This document shows, piece after piece, positions 1 through 12,214 of a stretch of DNA of 12,214 nt. Origin of the DNA: a virus. The notes beneath the pieces were generated by a model. It searched no databases. It saw only the letters and a list, made by a program, of their open reading frames with translations, and had not been told where the DNA came from. Where the stretch lies: the UHGV virus genome UHGV-1821312. One strand, written 5' to 3'. The translations under genes and the position numbers were made by a program. How positions within the stretch are numbered: the stretch's first letter is position 1; the number at the start of each line of letters is the position of its first letter.

Positions 1-46
1 AGATCTGCGCATGTCTCGTGGGCTCGGAGATGTGTATAAGAGACAG
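1..46. other. Non-genomic library adapter at the 5' end (Nextera/Tn5-type read-2 adapter plus 19-nt mosaic end)
   Basis: Positions 13..27 are GTCTCGTGGGCTCGG and 28..46 are AGATGTGTATAAGAGACAG, the Tn5 mosaic-end sequence. The exact reverse complement is at 12175..12208. Phage sequence starts at 47. Confidence 0.9.
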
Positions 47-361
47 GTCCTGCACAAAACGGGTAAATGCCTGCTGGCTGAGAAGGCGATGTGGAATATA
101 GGTACTGCTGATAATGTCACGCTTAACACTGATCGGGGAGCTGTGGTGCACGGCGGCGCGGAAGGTACGCGCCAGTCCGTCAAAGCTGACGGGCGGCTCA
201 TACCAGCGATCCATCTGCACGCATTCCACATAGTCCAGCAGCTCGCGGCGGTCCAGTACAGGAATGGGATCACCAAAGCTGAAAGCCTCAGCCGTTGGGC
301 TGTTGCCTGGTTTTGTGTTGTGATCAACTGTTACCTGCTTGGTGTTTTTACGTTTGCTCAT
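47..361 (-). CDS. Q: Portal (capsid portal vertex) protein, N-terminal 105 codons only; the rest is lost at the adapter junction
   Basis: My translation of the minus strand from ATG (revcomp of 359..361) gives MSKRKNTKQVTVDHNTKPGNSPTAEAFSFGDPIPVLDRRELLDYVECVQMDRWYEPPVSFDGLARTFRAAVHHSSPISVKRDIISSTYIPHRLLSQQAFTRFVQD with no stop. This resembles the P2 gpQ portal N-terminus as I recall it and sits where Q belongs. GAGGAG lies 8 nt upstream of the ATG. Not in the supplied ORF track because it has no stop in the window. Confidence 0.7.
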
Positions 362-1065
362 TCTGCCAGCTCCTCGTTTGCGAGAGGCCATTCGCACATA
401 AACAGCATTTTCCAGTCCTCTGCTGATAATTCTTTTTTCATATCGTTCAGCCAGTTATCAGTAAACAACATTGCTCCTGATGCTGCTGCGTCATCAGCGG
501 TAAACACCATGCTGGTTACACTGTTGTTTTTGCTTAACTTTTTAAATTCCTGCCATGCCTCCGGGTTAGGGCTGGGAGTGGTGTAGTAGGTGGCGTGGTG
601 GCGTGCGTGCATAGAAATCCCTTTAGCCAGGGCAATCATATTTCTCGGTGATTCAGACCAGGCATACTCTGACACGTAGACATTTCCACTGAGTGCGGTG
701 GCGTGGCACTTGAGGTCGAAAAAATAAATGACCGCACCATTCGGAAGCTCCAGATGACTTTTGCCTGATTTTATTTTTCCAGTGTGCGTATAAGCTGCGG
801 CCTGGCTTAAGAATGCTGACACATAGGCTTTGATTGCCTGCGCAGATGCTGTGCTGCAGCAGAGGAAAATCTGGTTACGCCCGGTATGCAGTGCATCGTT
901 CAGGGCTTCATAGGAAAAAAAGAAATCCGCGCCTGCCTGGCGCATTTTTGTGAGTACACGGTTTCTACTCTTTGGGCCAGTGTTCCACTCATACTGGTAA
1001 GCAAAGAAAGAGCTATCCACCGGAAGTCCCGCGATAGTCATGAGGTTAGTTGGGATTGGGGGCAT
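358..1065 (-). CDS. Stand-alone terminase-ATPase-domain paralog (235 aa from ATG at 1065), function unknown
   Basis: ORF-track protein 358..1068 aligns by eye to residues ~143-378 of the adjacent terminase (FAYQYEW / FNYQRHW; TGRNQIFL identical; LPNGA; GNVYVSEYAW / GNLYLDEYFW; TTPS / STPS; MLFMCEW / LLMCEF), roughly 40% identity. It lacks the terminase N-terminal ~140 aa and the C-terminal ~210 aa. GGAG lies 8 nt upstream of the ATG. I prefer the ATG at 1063..1065 to the track's TTG at 1066..1068. Confidence 0.8.
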   Translation of the reverse strand: MPPIPTNLMTIAGLPVDSSFFAYQYEWNTGPKSRNRVLTKMRQAGADFFFSYEALNDALHTGRNQIFLCCSTASAQAIKAYVSAFLSQAAAYTHTGKIKSGKSHLELPNGAVIYFFDLKCHATALSGNVYVSEYAWSESPRNMIALAKGISMHARHHATYYTTPSPNPEAWQEFKKLSKNNSVTSMVFTADDAAASGAMLFTDNWLNDMKKELSAEDWKMLFMCEWPLANEELAE

Positions 1066-2831
1066 CAAAAAATCTCCACAATATTGCTTGTATTGGCGGA
1101 CTCGCCCTGCAGCGGTTCATTAAACAGTGCGTGCATCGTTGCCCAGGCCAGATCGGCGTGGCTGGCTTCTTCGCTGCGGCTGGCTTCATAGGTCGGGCGG
1201 TTGCCGCTGGCGGTGGTGGCGCGACGGATTGCCATAAATGACTGCGCAATGTCGGTGTGCCCGGCGTCAAACTCCAGACGGCGGTGGCTGATAATGTCGT
1301 AGGCCTTGAGTACCAGGGCGTTTTTAACATTGGGGTTGTAGACAAACTCCCGGACGGCAGGAAAGAACGCTTTCACGTTCTCATAAACCCCGTGACCGAC
1401 GCCGGTCGAGTCGATGCCGATATAGGTCACGTTGTACTGTTCGGTCAATTTTTTGATGGCGTCCGCCTGGGCGCGGAAGTCCATCCCGCGCCACTGGTGA
1501 CGCTCAAGAATGCGGAACTTACCGCCCGGCACGGCTGGCGGTGCCACCACCACGCATCCGGCGCTGTCGCCGTTCTGCGTACCTTTTGCCGGGTCATAAC
1601 CGATCCACACTTCGCGCCAGCCAAACGGGCGAAGGGCCAGTGCATGAAAGTCGGTCCAGACTTCCCAGCTGTCCACCATGCACGCCTGCAGCTCGCTGAG
1701 CGGGAACACGGACGCGAGATCGTCCACAAACTCGCACATCAGCAGGTTCTGGTATTCGCCCGGGCTGTACTCCATGCGCAACTGATCGAGGTCGAAAAGG
1801 TTACATCCGCCGCGCACTGCATCTTCCACGGTGACTATCTGGCGGTATTGCCCGTCTGCACACAGCAGGCCGGGGGCCAGATTGTTGTGTGACAGGTCAA
1901 TGTCCACCTTGTCGGCTTTGTTGCGGCCACGGTTGAACAGCGCACCGGACCAGAACGGATAAGCACTGTGGGTAAGGCTGGATGGCGTGGAAAAATAGGT
2001 TTGTCGCCATTTTTTGTGAATAGCCATACCGGAAGCCACTTTGCGCAGCTCCTGGAATTTCGGTATCCAGAAATATTCATCCAGATACAGGTTGCCGTGG
2101 TAACTCTGGGCCGTGCGGGCATTGGTGCCGAGGAAATACAGTGTGGCCCCGTTGGGAAGCACCATCGGATCGCCTTTCAGCTCCACCTCCACTTCTTTGG
2201 CGAAGTCGATGATGTACTGTTTAAAGACGTGGGCCTGTGCCTTACTGGCGGAAAGGAAAATCTGGTTACGTCCGGTCAGAAGGGCGTCAATCAGGGCTTC
2301 ACGGGCAAAGTAAAAGGTCGCGCCGATCTGGCGTGACTTCAGCAGGTTGCGGATGCGGTTGGTTTTTCCGGCTTCCCACCAGTGGCGCTGGTAGTTGAAC
2401 ATAGAGGAATGGAAGATTTCTTCCAGTTTCTCAATCTGTTCATCGGTGAAAACATTCTTTTCCGGCTGACGGCGCGGGCCTTTGTTGCGGTTGGCGACGT
2501 TAGGGTTTAAGTCGGCTTCGTTGCCGCCATTGTTAAACTTGCCGATCCGCGCGTGGCGCTCCGACTGGCGCGCCAGCAGGTCAATCTCTTTGAAATCTTT
2601 CCCTTCTTTGTGCTCCTTCATAATGAGCTGGCAGTAGCGTGCGGCGGTGGTGAGCTGCATCTGATCCAGCGGCCCATAGTCACCCCACTTGTCGCGTTTT
2701 TTCCAGCTGTGAACGGTTGCAACTTTCTCGCCCAGCATTTCAGCAATGCGGGCTACGCGGTATCCCTGAAAGTACAGCAGCATGGCCTGCCGACGGGGAT
2801 CGAGATCTGCGGGTGTCAGTGTGGTGTTCAT
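1065..2831 (-). CDS. P: Terminase ATPase (large) subunit, P2 gpP family, 588 aa
   Basis: Size and sequence are typical of P2-type terminase ATPase subunits. N-terminal region RRQAMLLYFQGYRVARIAEMLGEKVATVHSWKKRDKW, then a lambda-gpA-like deviant P-loop KSRQIGAT, a Walker-B-like LYLDE and a C-terminal domain. Divergent from the O-N-M-L operon as in P2. Confidence 0.92.
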   Translation of the reverse strand: MNTTLTPADLDPRRQAMLLYFQGYRVARIAEMLGEKVATVHSWKKRDKWGDYGPLDQMQLTTAARYCQLIMKEHKEGKDFKEIDLLARQSERHARIGKFNNGGNEADLNPNVANRNKGPRRQPEKNVFTDEQIEKLEEIFHSSMFNYQRHWWEAGKTNRIRNLLKSRQIGATFYFAREALIDALLTGRNQIFLSASKAQAHVFKQYIIDFAKEVEVELKGDPMVLPNGATLYFLGTNARTAQSYHGNLYLDEYFWIPKFQELRKVASGMAIHKKWRQTYFSTPSSLTHSAYPFWSGALFNRGRNKADKVDIDLSHNNLAPGLLCADGQYRQIVTVEDAVRGGCNLFDLDQLRMEYSPGEYQNLLMCEFVDDLASVFPLSELQACMVDSWEVWTDFHALALRPFGWREVWIGYDPAKGTQNGDSAGCVVVAPPAVPGGKFRILERHQWRGMDFRAQADAIKKLTEQYNVTYIGIDSTGVGHGVYENVKAFFPAVREFVYNPNVKNALVLKAYDIISHRRLEFDAGHTDIAQSFMAIRRATTASGNRPTYEASRSEEASHADLAWATMHALFNEPLQGESANTSNIVEIF

Positions 2832-2877
2832 GGCACAAACCTACAGCCTTGAATGAAGGCTTTCCCCGCCTGCGGTT

Positions 2878-2895
2878 TGTGTGGTTGTCGGTACA
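2878..2895. promoter_or_regulatory. TGT-N12-ACA element in the divergent P/O late-promoter region (candidate Ogr/Delta-type activator site)
   Basis: TGT at 2878..2880 and ACA at 2893..2895 are separated by 12 nt, inside the 142-bp P-O intergenic region. The centre lies ~88 bp upstream of the O ATG and ~55 bp from the P ATG. P2-family late promoters are known to carry this half-site dyad centred near -55. Confidence 0.4.
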
Positions 2896-2973
2896 AATAC
2901 CGCGCATTGTTTCACTACCCCCATCACCGCAACCATAAGGCTCCAGTAAGTTTTTTTTAACGGAGCACGGCTC

Positions 2974-3807
2974 ATGACAGTGAAAGCAAAGCGTTTTCGC
3001 ATCGGGGTGGAAGGTGCCACCACCGACGGACGCGAAATCCAGCGTGAATGGCTGGAACAGATGGCAGCCAGCTACAACCCGGCGGTGTATACCGCGCTGA
3101 TTAACCTTGAGCACATCAAGTCTTATCTGCCGGACAGCACCTTTAACCGCTACGGCAAGGTGACGGCGCTGTTTGCTGAGGAAATCACGGAAGGTCCGCT
3201 GGCAGGCAAGATGGCGCTGTATGCCGACGTTGAGCCAACGGAGTCCCTGGTGGAACTGGTGAAAAAAGGCCAGAAATTATTCACCTCTATGGAAGTCAGC
3301 CCGAAGTTCGCTGATACGGGCAAAGCCTACCTGGTCGGCCTGGCTGCCACTGATGACCCTGCCAGTCTGGGCACTGAAATGCTGACATTCAGCGCCAGTG
3401 CAGCCCATAACCCGCTGGCAAACCGCAAGCAGAATCCTGCCAATCTCTTTACCGCTGCAGAGGAAACGGTGATCGAACTGGAGGAAGTCCAGGACGACAA
3501 ACCGTCCCTGTTTTCCCGCGTCACGGCGCTGTTCACCAAAAAAGAGCAGTCCGATGACGCCCGGTTCTCTGATGTGCATAAGGCCGTGGAACTGGTCGCC
3601 ACTGAGCAGCAAAACCTGAGCGCGCGAACCGAAAAATCTCTGTCTGAGCAGGAAGAACGCCTGTCTGAACTGGAGTCTGCTCTGCAGAAGCAGCAAACCG
3701 CCTTTAATGAACTGGTGAATAAGCTGAGTCATGAAGACAGCCGCCAGGACTACCGCCAGCGTGCAACAGGCGGTAACGCCCCCGCTGACACTCTGACCAA
3801 TTGCTGA
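2974..3807 (+). CDS. O: Capsid scaffolding protein, P2 gpO family, 277 aa
   Basis: Motifs FRIGVEG, INLEH, YLVGLAATDDPASLGTE and the C-terminal TNC match gpO as I recall it. GGAG lies 8 nt upstream of the ATG. Confidence 0.9.
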   Translation: MTVKAKRFRIGVEGATTDGREIQREWLEQMAASYNPAVYTALINLEHIKSYLPDSTFNRYGKVTALFAEEITEGPLAGKMALYADVEPTESLVELVKKGQKLFTSMEVSPKFADTGKAYLVGLAATDDPASLGTEMLTFSASAAHNPLANRKQNPANLFTAAEETVIELEEVQDDKPSLFSRVTALFTKKEQSDDARFSDVHKAVELVATEQQNLSARTEKSLSEQEERLSELESALQKQQTAFNELVNKLSHEDSRQDYRQRATGGNAPADTLTNC

Positions 3808-12174: not shown

Positions 12175-12214
12175 CTGTCTCTTATACACATCTCCGAGCC
12201 CACGAGACATGCGC
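12175..12214. other. Non-genomic library adapter at the 3' end (reverse complement of the 5' adapter)
   Basis: CTGTCTCTTATACACATCT at 12175..12193, then CCGAGCCCACGAGAC. Confidence 0.9.

Follow-up and report, generated by a model that had tools for sequence, protein, structure and literature searches.

Located in UHGV virus genome UHGV-1821312, the DNA stretch analyzed here (12,214 nucleotides (nt), hereafter referred to as the window) covers late genes of a P2-like phage or prophage (Peduoviridae). Between the gene encoding the terminase large subunit gpP (gene P) and the portal gene Q, an additional open reading frame (ORF) of 235 amino acids (aa), termed P' in this study, was observed. Based on its sequence features, P' almost certainly represents a functional, separately translated paralog of the ATPase domain of gpP only, which would be produced from the late P-Q transcript by translational coupling. 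Sequence comparisons characterize it as a selectively maintained pseudo-terminase retaining the nucleotide pocket. An earlier note on this DNA, prepared without database searches, had described an intact, diverged, stand-alone ATPase-domain paralog between P and Q, and homology, fold, synteny and purifying selection all agree with this description. The features of the junction and of the predicted active site are as follows:

1065..358, minus strand: P', 235 aa, stand-alone paralog of the gpP ATPase domain (ORF and translation, homology, Pfam, AlphaFold2 fold, ratio of nonsynonymous to synonymous substitution rates (dN/dS)).
1065..2831, minus strand: gpP, terminase large subunit, 588 aa, parent of P' (Terminase_5, Terminase_6N and Terminase_6C; motifs KSRQIGAT and LYLDE).
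47..361, minus strand: 5' part of the portal gene Q (translation; portal annotation in matching records).
1074..1077, minus strand: GGAG, predicted ribosome-binding site (RBS) of P', within the 3' end of P (sequence; junction alignment with Cartapus and P2).
370..375, minus strand: GAGGAG, predicted RBS of Q, contributed by the 3' end of P' (sequence; junction alignment).
994..999, minus strand: adenine-binding Q-motif YQ, residues 23-24 (Q24 invariant in P'; conserved in gpP as Q148).
925..948, minus strand: Walker A-like P-loop KMRQAGAD, residues 40-47 (alignments and motif table; Lys, Arg and Gly retained, magnesium-binding Thr replaced by Asp47).
667..681, minus strand: Walker B-like VYVSE, residues 129-133 (alignments; Asp replaced by Ser132, catalytic Glu133 retained).
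571..582, minus strand: C-motif TTPS, residues 162-165 (T162 nearly invariant and S165 invariant among 28 sequences; STPS in gpP).

The boundaries of P' are exact, with the start codon ATG at positions 1065-1063 and the stop codon TGA at 360-358 of the minus strand. In the mechanically compiled ORF list, a product of 236 aa starting from a TTG at position 1068 was given; the ATG is the start used by homologs and annotators. The stop codon of gpP overlaps the P' start as TGATG, and the ATG of Q (361-359) overlaps the P' stop as ATGA. The GGAG motif is placed 9 nt before the ATG of P', bearing out the good RBS postulated in the earlier note, and in phages devoid of P' the identical GGAG site serves Q. 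Since the 3' end of P including its GGAG leads directly to the Q start codon in Cartapus and P2, both lacking the gene, P' represents a precise insertion between two translationally coupled genes. At other P' loci, the overlap with P amounts to 1 nt or 4 nt, differing from the window. A sigma-70-like promoter was not detected upstream of P'; the sole hit within positions 1-3100 lies inside P and is at chance level. Moreover, a terminator-like hairpin (GC-rich stem and T run) was predicted on both strands at 928-944, overlapping the Walker A codons of P'. Terminator-like hits in positions 1-3100 numbered 7 vs. 3.8 expected by chance, and this hairpin may well be a chance match.

In BLASTP analyses, P' was aligned to residues 142-368 of the window gpP at 32% identity (E 3e-32), and 35% identity was calculated over trimmed alignment columns. 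The homology to the gpP core proposed in the earlier note therefore stands, whereas its estimate of ~40% identity by eye has to be lowered to 32-35%. Pfam analysis of P' returned Terminase_6N only (PF03237; 61.8 bits vs. a cut-off of 22; residues 42-226), which accords with the previously noted absence of both the N-terminal region and the nuclease domain. The C-terminal RNaseH-like nuclease domain (Terminase_6C) yielded no Pfam hit, the last residue of P' (235) aligning with gpP residues ~368-372, and the N-terminal Terminase_5/helix-turn-helix region of gpP is also missing, since the P' start corresponds to approximately gpP residue 126. As recommended in the earlier note, the structure of P' was predicted, using AlphaFold2 with 28 homologs (mean predicted local distance difference test score 81.6, predicted template modeling score 0.82). 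The top fold matches in the PDB were all terminase ATPase domains, namely those of T4 gp17, P74-26, D6E, HK97 and Sf6, and the PhiV-1 terminase from an Avs3-bound structure was also among the best hits. A profile search of the PDB with the P' family returned nothing meaningful; the link to solved structures is provided via fold comparison only.

The Walker motifs KMRQAGAD and VYVSE of P' correspond to KSRQIGAT and LYLDE in gpP. According to PMC9599734, the two residues exchanged between these motifs constitute a strictly conserved, hydrogen-bonded, magnesium-coordinating pair in P-loop nucleoside triphosphatases (NTPases). In a table of Walker pairs compiled from ~200 aligned sequences, full-length gpP-type terminases (at least 500 aa) featured Thr or Ser in Walker A together with Asp in Walker B in 71 of 71 cases. 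Among the short proteins carrying the Walker A Asp (n = 75), none kept the Walker B Asp, which was replaced by Ser (65), Pro (4), Gly (3), Ala (2) or Leu (1). The canonical pair was present in 27 short proteins, including the P' proteins of Midge and Pectobacterium. Copies showing canonical GAT and DE as well as part of the DG.WRQ motif were found in Midge (L004 3444-4190), in a Pectobacterium cluster (P0067) and at L030 483-1238; such canonical-motif copies between P and Q seem to reflect the same duplication at a less-derived stage.

Beyond the Walker pair, an alignment of 28 P' sequences (35-92% identical to the window protein) contained 34 invariant columns concentrated at active-site positions. 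Residues K40, R42 and G45 of the P-loop are invariant, preserving the K-x-R-Q-x-G pattern known from gpP (KSRQIG), and so is the catalytic E133. Active-site positions are invariant even among P' proteins of Escherichia, Yersinia, Serratia and Buttiauxella that are only 35-40% identical. Comparison of 55 full-length terminases with 24 diverse P' sequences revealed that Q24, R36, K40, R42, G45, E53, E133, W136 and the C-motif residues T159 and S165 were kept; the gpP residues retained in P' are Q148, K165, R167, G170, E252 and S284. Among the gpP-invariant residues, T172, S194, A195, S196, Q199, T236, N237, Q242, D251, H288, W294, D326 and R330 were lost or variable, and four gpP-invariant motifs (SAS..Q, TN..TAQ, H..W and the DG.WRQ insertion) are gone. 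From this pattern of kept and exchanged residues, we infer that P' would still bind nucleotide and that its hydrolysis chemistry is altered or abolished. Likewise, P' appears to have shed the motor role of the lost motifs, which, judging from other ASCE translocases, would presumably be DNA or inter-subunit contacts. P' is not a terminase large subunit, since none of the three defining features tested was found, and, judged by its domain content, it is predicted to be unable to cut DNA. Owing to the loss or change of domains, of the magnesium pair and of the four gpP motifs, P' can act neither as a second terminase nor as a redundant subunit of the motor.

In order to assess conservation of the locus, 88 loci originating from species-representative genomes and IMG/VR viral contigs were inspected. 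The gpP nuclease domain directly upstream and the portal gene directly downstream of P' were found in 86 of these, the other two ending at contig edges; the portal gene alone followed directly in 87 of 88, and the order gpP-P'-portal was seen in every locus inspected by hand. An intact P' ORF of 225-242 aa was present in 87 of the loci, the single short copy being cut by a contig end. The motif counts of these loci involve some circularity, as the motifs were themselves part of the scan patterns; evidence free of this circularity comes from the ~200-sequence motif table. A database search retrieved 57 clusters at E values up to 1e-10, nearly all of them stand-alone proteins of 220-241 aa, originating from Escherichia, Salmonella, Citrobacter, Klebsiella, Leclercia, Phytobacter, Pantoea, Yersinia and Buttiauxella. 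Further relatives from Serratia, Hafnia, Limnobaculum, Pectobacterium, Providencia and Xenorhabdus were obtained by a profile search of 1.84 billion representatives. Since a complete gpP including its nuclease domain adjoins P' in every locus, a split terminase was ruled out. A recent duplicate or an assembly artefact was also rejected: the near-identity to P at the DNA level that the earlier note associated with such an origin was not observed, protein identity to P being only 32%, and P' occurs in many independent records.

Pairwise dN/dS values of P' were 0.19-0.23 at a synonymous divergence (dS) of ~0.7 and 0.3-0.6 for close alleles; corresponding values were 0.01-0.07 for gpP, 0.04-0.10 for Q and 0.03-0.13 for O. 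Based on these values, P' is under purifying selection. The nonsynonymous divergence (dN) of P' is ~20x that of gpP at similar dS; between the window and E. coli A38, for example, dN was 0.033 for P' vs. 0.0015 for gpP. Intact ORFs across loci and dN/dS values of ~0.2-0.6 are in line with the earlier assessment that P' is neither a fragment nor a pseudogene. A few truncated or frameshifted copies were encountered (500465-1, P0016, P0035 and P0038). In phage 500465-1 (L001 3001-3531 and 3720-4758), the P' homolog and the portal are annotated as split or shortened coding sequences, and tblastn recovers P' in two pieces; these splits probably represent frameshift errors of the record, not biology. 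Furthermore, the loop preceding the Walker B strand of P' (window 697-720, residues 116-123, FDLKCHAT) is hypervariable even among close E. coli alleles, and its gpP counterpart GTNARTAQS is almost invariant.

Regarding its distribution, P' was detected in 21 of 5426 complete E. coli genomes, whereas the gpP of this type occurs in 1228; P' is missing from ~98% of the E. coli prophages that carry this gpP. Individual E. coli genomes hold up to three gpP copies, and the window gpP gene shares 97-98% nucleotide identity with numerous terminase genes of E. coli prophages. A protein-level comparison with phage records gave 485 that match P' via their gpP, but only 21 extra places of match. Isolated phages carrying the gene are MLG42, YenM_201.16, YenM_56.17, Midge and 500465-1; it is missing from viable relatives such as Cartapus (99% identity in the ATPase region of gpP), Fels-2, SEN8 and RE2010. 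The comparison of P-Q junctions suggested in the earlier note hence separates Cartapus, Fels-2 and SEN8, in which P' is absent, from other loci, in which it is present.

Moreover, P' exhibits a GC content of 46-49% vs. 53-62% for its flanks. When analyzed together with 14 gpPs from partners and outgroups, nine P' proteins formed a monophyletic group with 100% bootstrap support. The P' tree is at odds with the gpP tree, and P' recombines independently of P and Q. Midge and Buttiauxella share gpP proteins of 92% identity but P' proteins of only 33%; dS between the window and TUM2820 was 0.21 for gpP vs. 0.71 for P', and between A38 and MINF_1D it was 0.05 for P' vs. 1.0 for Q. P' is thus a rare, optional, mobile accessory gene. 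In the databases it is held under generic names, NCBI labeling it 'terminase large subunit domain-containing protein'. The statement of the earlier note that no such gene had been described holds insofar as literature searches found no published description, papers on the carrier Yersinia phages not discussing it; it has to be restricted insofar as NCBI already names the protein in sequenced phages.

A related clade of short proteins, supported by 100% bootstrap, is characterized by the signature TGRNK / DVYxSEW / YSSRS. Its members originate from Providencia, Xenorhabdus and metagenomes, and most of them possess the Asp/non-Asp Walker pair. At three loci of P2-like prophages (L029 7001-7750, L033 6001-6699 and L034 6001-6738), their genes immediately follow replication gene A within the early operon, and in these prophages P directly adjoins Q without an intervening gene. 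If the function is common to both clades, co-translation with P and Q is unneeded, and action early in the lytic cycle would be possible. Bootstrap values for a single origin of the P-Q clade, the after-A clade and other short ATPase-only proteins were 28-35%, and no number of origins of the Thr/Asp swap is claimed. On a more distant contig, an ATPase-only ORF with canonical motifs directly follows a gpP nuclease domain; duplication of part of P thus recurs.

The remainder of the window encodes, on the plus strand, O, N, M and L, followed by genes for lysis, tail and baseplate and by the beginning of the tail-fiber gene. A Nextera adapter, GTCTCGTGGGCTCGGAGATGTGTATAAGAGACAG, was recognized at positions 13-46 (forward) and at ~12176-12209 (reverse-complemented). 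Since public matches start at base 47, the contig ends represent untrimmed adapter and bases 1-46 are not phage DNA; the 'portal' translation therefore ends in ~15 codons of non-phage origin. The region past Q is a variable accessory-gene slot in P2-like phages. In related E. coli prophages (L016 1-1923, L017 594-1936 and L018 1-1219) and in phage 500465-1 (L001 5797-6225), variable defense-type genes are located just past Q, among them genes for an AAA ATPase, TIR-domain proteins and DarT with a macro domain.

As a possible function, we tentatively propose that P' acts as a nucleotide-bound mimic of the terminase ATPase domain engaging a terminase-directed host factor. As a structural mimic of that domain, P' would be produced along with the terminase or, in the clade located after gene A, earlier. 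It would engage a factor that otherwise engages the ATPase domain of gpP, the leading candidate partner being a terminase-sensing or terminase-inhibiting host protein, such as those of the Avs2/Avs3 or Upx class. P' would accordingly represent an accessory gene of phage-host conflict rather than a core packaging component. Such conflict-gene behavior is suggested by patchy carriage in near-identical phages, fast evolution, low GC content, recombination separate from the neighboring genes and a move to the early operon. The ATPase domain of a terminase on its own strongly activates EcAvs2, which contacts the terminase-bound ATP and its magnesium hydration shell (PMC13601566). Furthermore, T4 vs.8, a stand-alone paralog of the terminase ATPase, activates EcAvs2, and a possible anti-defense function was suggested for it by the authors (PMC13601566). 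The terminase-mimic interpretation was ranked first because this literature offers a concrete candidate partner. A more specific version, in which P' would blunt or divert terminase-sensing immunity (Avs2/Avs3, Upx) as a counter-defense of pseudo-substrate style built from the phage's most conserved protein, is regarded as unlikely. It would imply that the inverted Walker pair alters the ATP-magnesium surface read by the sensors, and that P' binds without licensing sensor oligomerization or itself escapes detection.

Several points weigh against a role of P' as a terminase mimic in phage-host conflict. Its main weakness is that an Avs sensor bound by P' would be expected to be triggered, as with vs.8, rather than blocked. 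In that case, the rarity of P' could reflect a cost, and the gene may be a liability tolerated for another benefit. The tight coupling to P and Q in the clade of the window fits a packaging role equally well, and the fast evolution of P' could result from relaxed constraint after loss of the motor function instead of an arms race; dN/dS of P' never exceeds 1. In addition, a single origin of the P-Q clade and the after-A clade received only 35% bootstrap support. No PADLOC-DB family matched P' at E values up to 1, anti-defense databases not having been searched, and there is no NCBIfam defense-gene model for it.

P' might alternatively function as a degenerate, non-translocating accessory or regulatory packaging subunit located on the gpP ring, the portal or the small subunit gpM, where it would tune assembly, ATPase firing or cos cleavage. 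The start/stop overlaps with P and Q imply co-translation at similar levels, and together with the strict P-Q synteny (86/88 loci) and the kept nucleotide pocket and catalytic Glu they are compatible with this explanation; degenerate subunits in hetero-oligomeric ATPases are a well-known pattern. However, P' is dispensable, being missing in phages with 99% identical gpP and in the ~98% of E. coli prophages mentioned above, and its alleles are shuffled relative to those of gpP and Q. It evolves ~20x faster than its supposed partner gpP, the related clade resides in the early operon after gene A, away from P and Q, and the loss of several gpP-invariant motifs speaks against a regulator of the motor, a role that had been considered in the earlier note. 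On balance, a packaging subunit is judged somewhat unlikely.

Even less probable is a dominant-negative terminase mimic, also raised previously, that would poison the motors of competing P2-like phages, co-resident prophages or P4-type satellites. Ring ATPases are generally sensitive to inactive subunits, up to three gpP copies occur per E. coli genome, and patchy distribution, fast evolution and accessory-like composition would suit an interference weapon. Yet gpP is 97-100% identical among many E. coli prophages, so that P' could not distinguish its own terminase from that of a rival, and poisoning of P4-type satellites, which use the helper's own terminase, would also harm the helper. Moreover, gpP, as the presumed target, does not evolve at a correspondingly high rate (dN/dS 0.01-0.07), the gpP-invariant motifs lost from P' may include ring or DNA contacts, and the location of the related clade in the early operon weakens the case for a dominant-negative function.

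That P' is a functionless remnant of a tandem duplication of part of P, drifting to loss, or in a variant an assembly or annotation artefact, is hardly credible: P' did arise by partial duplication of P, is less constrained than gpP and includes the few damaged copies named above, but 87 of 88 loci possess intact ORFs of 225-242 aa, dN/dS is ~0.2 at dS ~0.7, active-site positions are invariant in proteins of 35-40% identity, isolated, viable phages carry the gene, and its DNA is far from identical to that of P. The chance that P' is mainly expressed as a gpP-P' fusion, a terminase with a second ATPase-like domain generated by -1 slippage of the ribosome within the T6 stretch preceding the P stop (window 1063-1077, minus strand, GGAGATTTTTTGATG; GAG ATT TTT TGA, with TTG ATG in the -1 frame), is likewise minimal. 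The -1 frame is open from the TTG at 1068 into P' and six T residues immediately precede the P stop codon; however, the register of the heptamer does not suit tandem slippage, the T run is also present in Cartapus, which lacks P', and is absent from P2, the GGAG and ATG of P' itself are conserved in homologs, and the P/P' overlap differs elsewhere (1 nt, 4 nt). Programmed -1 frameshifting was judged unlikely from the junction alignment.

Among the proteins of tailed phages, terminases show the highest conservation, and they are a main target of bacterial pattern-recognition immunity. This raises the question of what a phage gains from a second, non-packaging terminase ATPase fold, a question equally posed by T4 vs.8. 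The P' family is clean and phylogenetically broad, and both carrier phages and nearly isogenic non-carriers exist. A further question is whether a Walker NTPase can work with its magnesium-coordinating Ser/Thr and its Walker B Asp exchanged. The exchange is consistent and perfectly coupled in the proteins of the swapped type and is of enzymological interest whatever the biological role. It is unusual when set against a pair reported as strictly conserved in PMC9599734.

In comparison to known systems, P' shares ATPase homology, the TerL ATPase fold, the deviant P-loop K-x-R-Q-x-G, the Q-motif, the catalytic Glu and the C-motif with gpP-type terminases. Unlike gpP, it contains neither Terminase_5 nor the nuclease domain, features Asp in Walker A and Ser in Walker B, has lost four motifs, is dispensable and evolves ~20x faster. 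Degenerate pseudo-ATPase paralogs are also known elsewhere, e.g., clamp-loader delta/delta-prime and F1 alpha. Like P', these are paralogs of catalytic ATPases that kept the fold and often nucleotide binding, with catalytic residues altered; they are obligatory subunits of a defined complex, whereas P' is optional. Ksap2, a small phage protein activating KpAvs2, bears a weak structural resemblance to the terminase ATPase domain and engages a terminase sensor (PMC11564622). It is devoid of sequence homology to terminases, whereas P' is a clear sequence homolog of gpP.

The closest described analog of P' is T4 vs.8 (219 aa; PMC13601566). Both proteins are of similar size (~220-235 aa), are homologous to the terminase ATPase domain of their own phage and occur in certain phage taxa only. 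A sequence relationship between the two was not detectable with the P' profile (hhalign probability 0.1%), and the two therefore arose independently, from different terminase lineages. Furthermore, vs.8 keeps the canonical GKS and IIDE motifs and is encoded in an early/middle gene cluster far from gene 17, whereas P' carries the inverted pair and is located directly between the terminase and portal genes. Compared with other stand-alone paralogs of the terminase ATPase, P' is distinctive in its fixed position between terminase and portal, its coupled Walker inversion and its loss of motor motifs.

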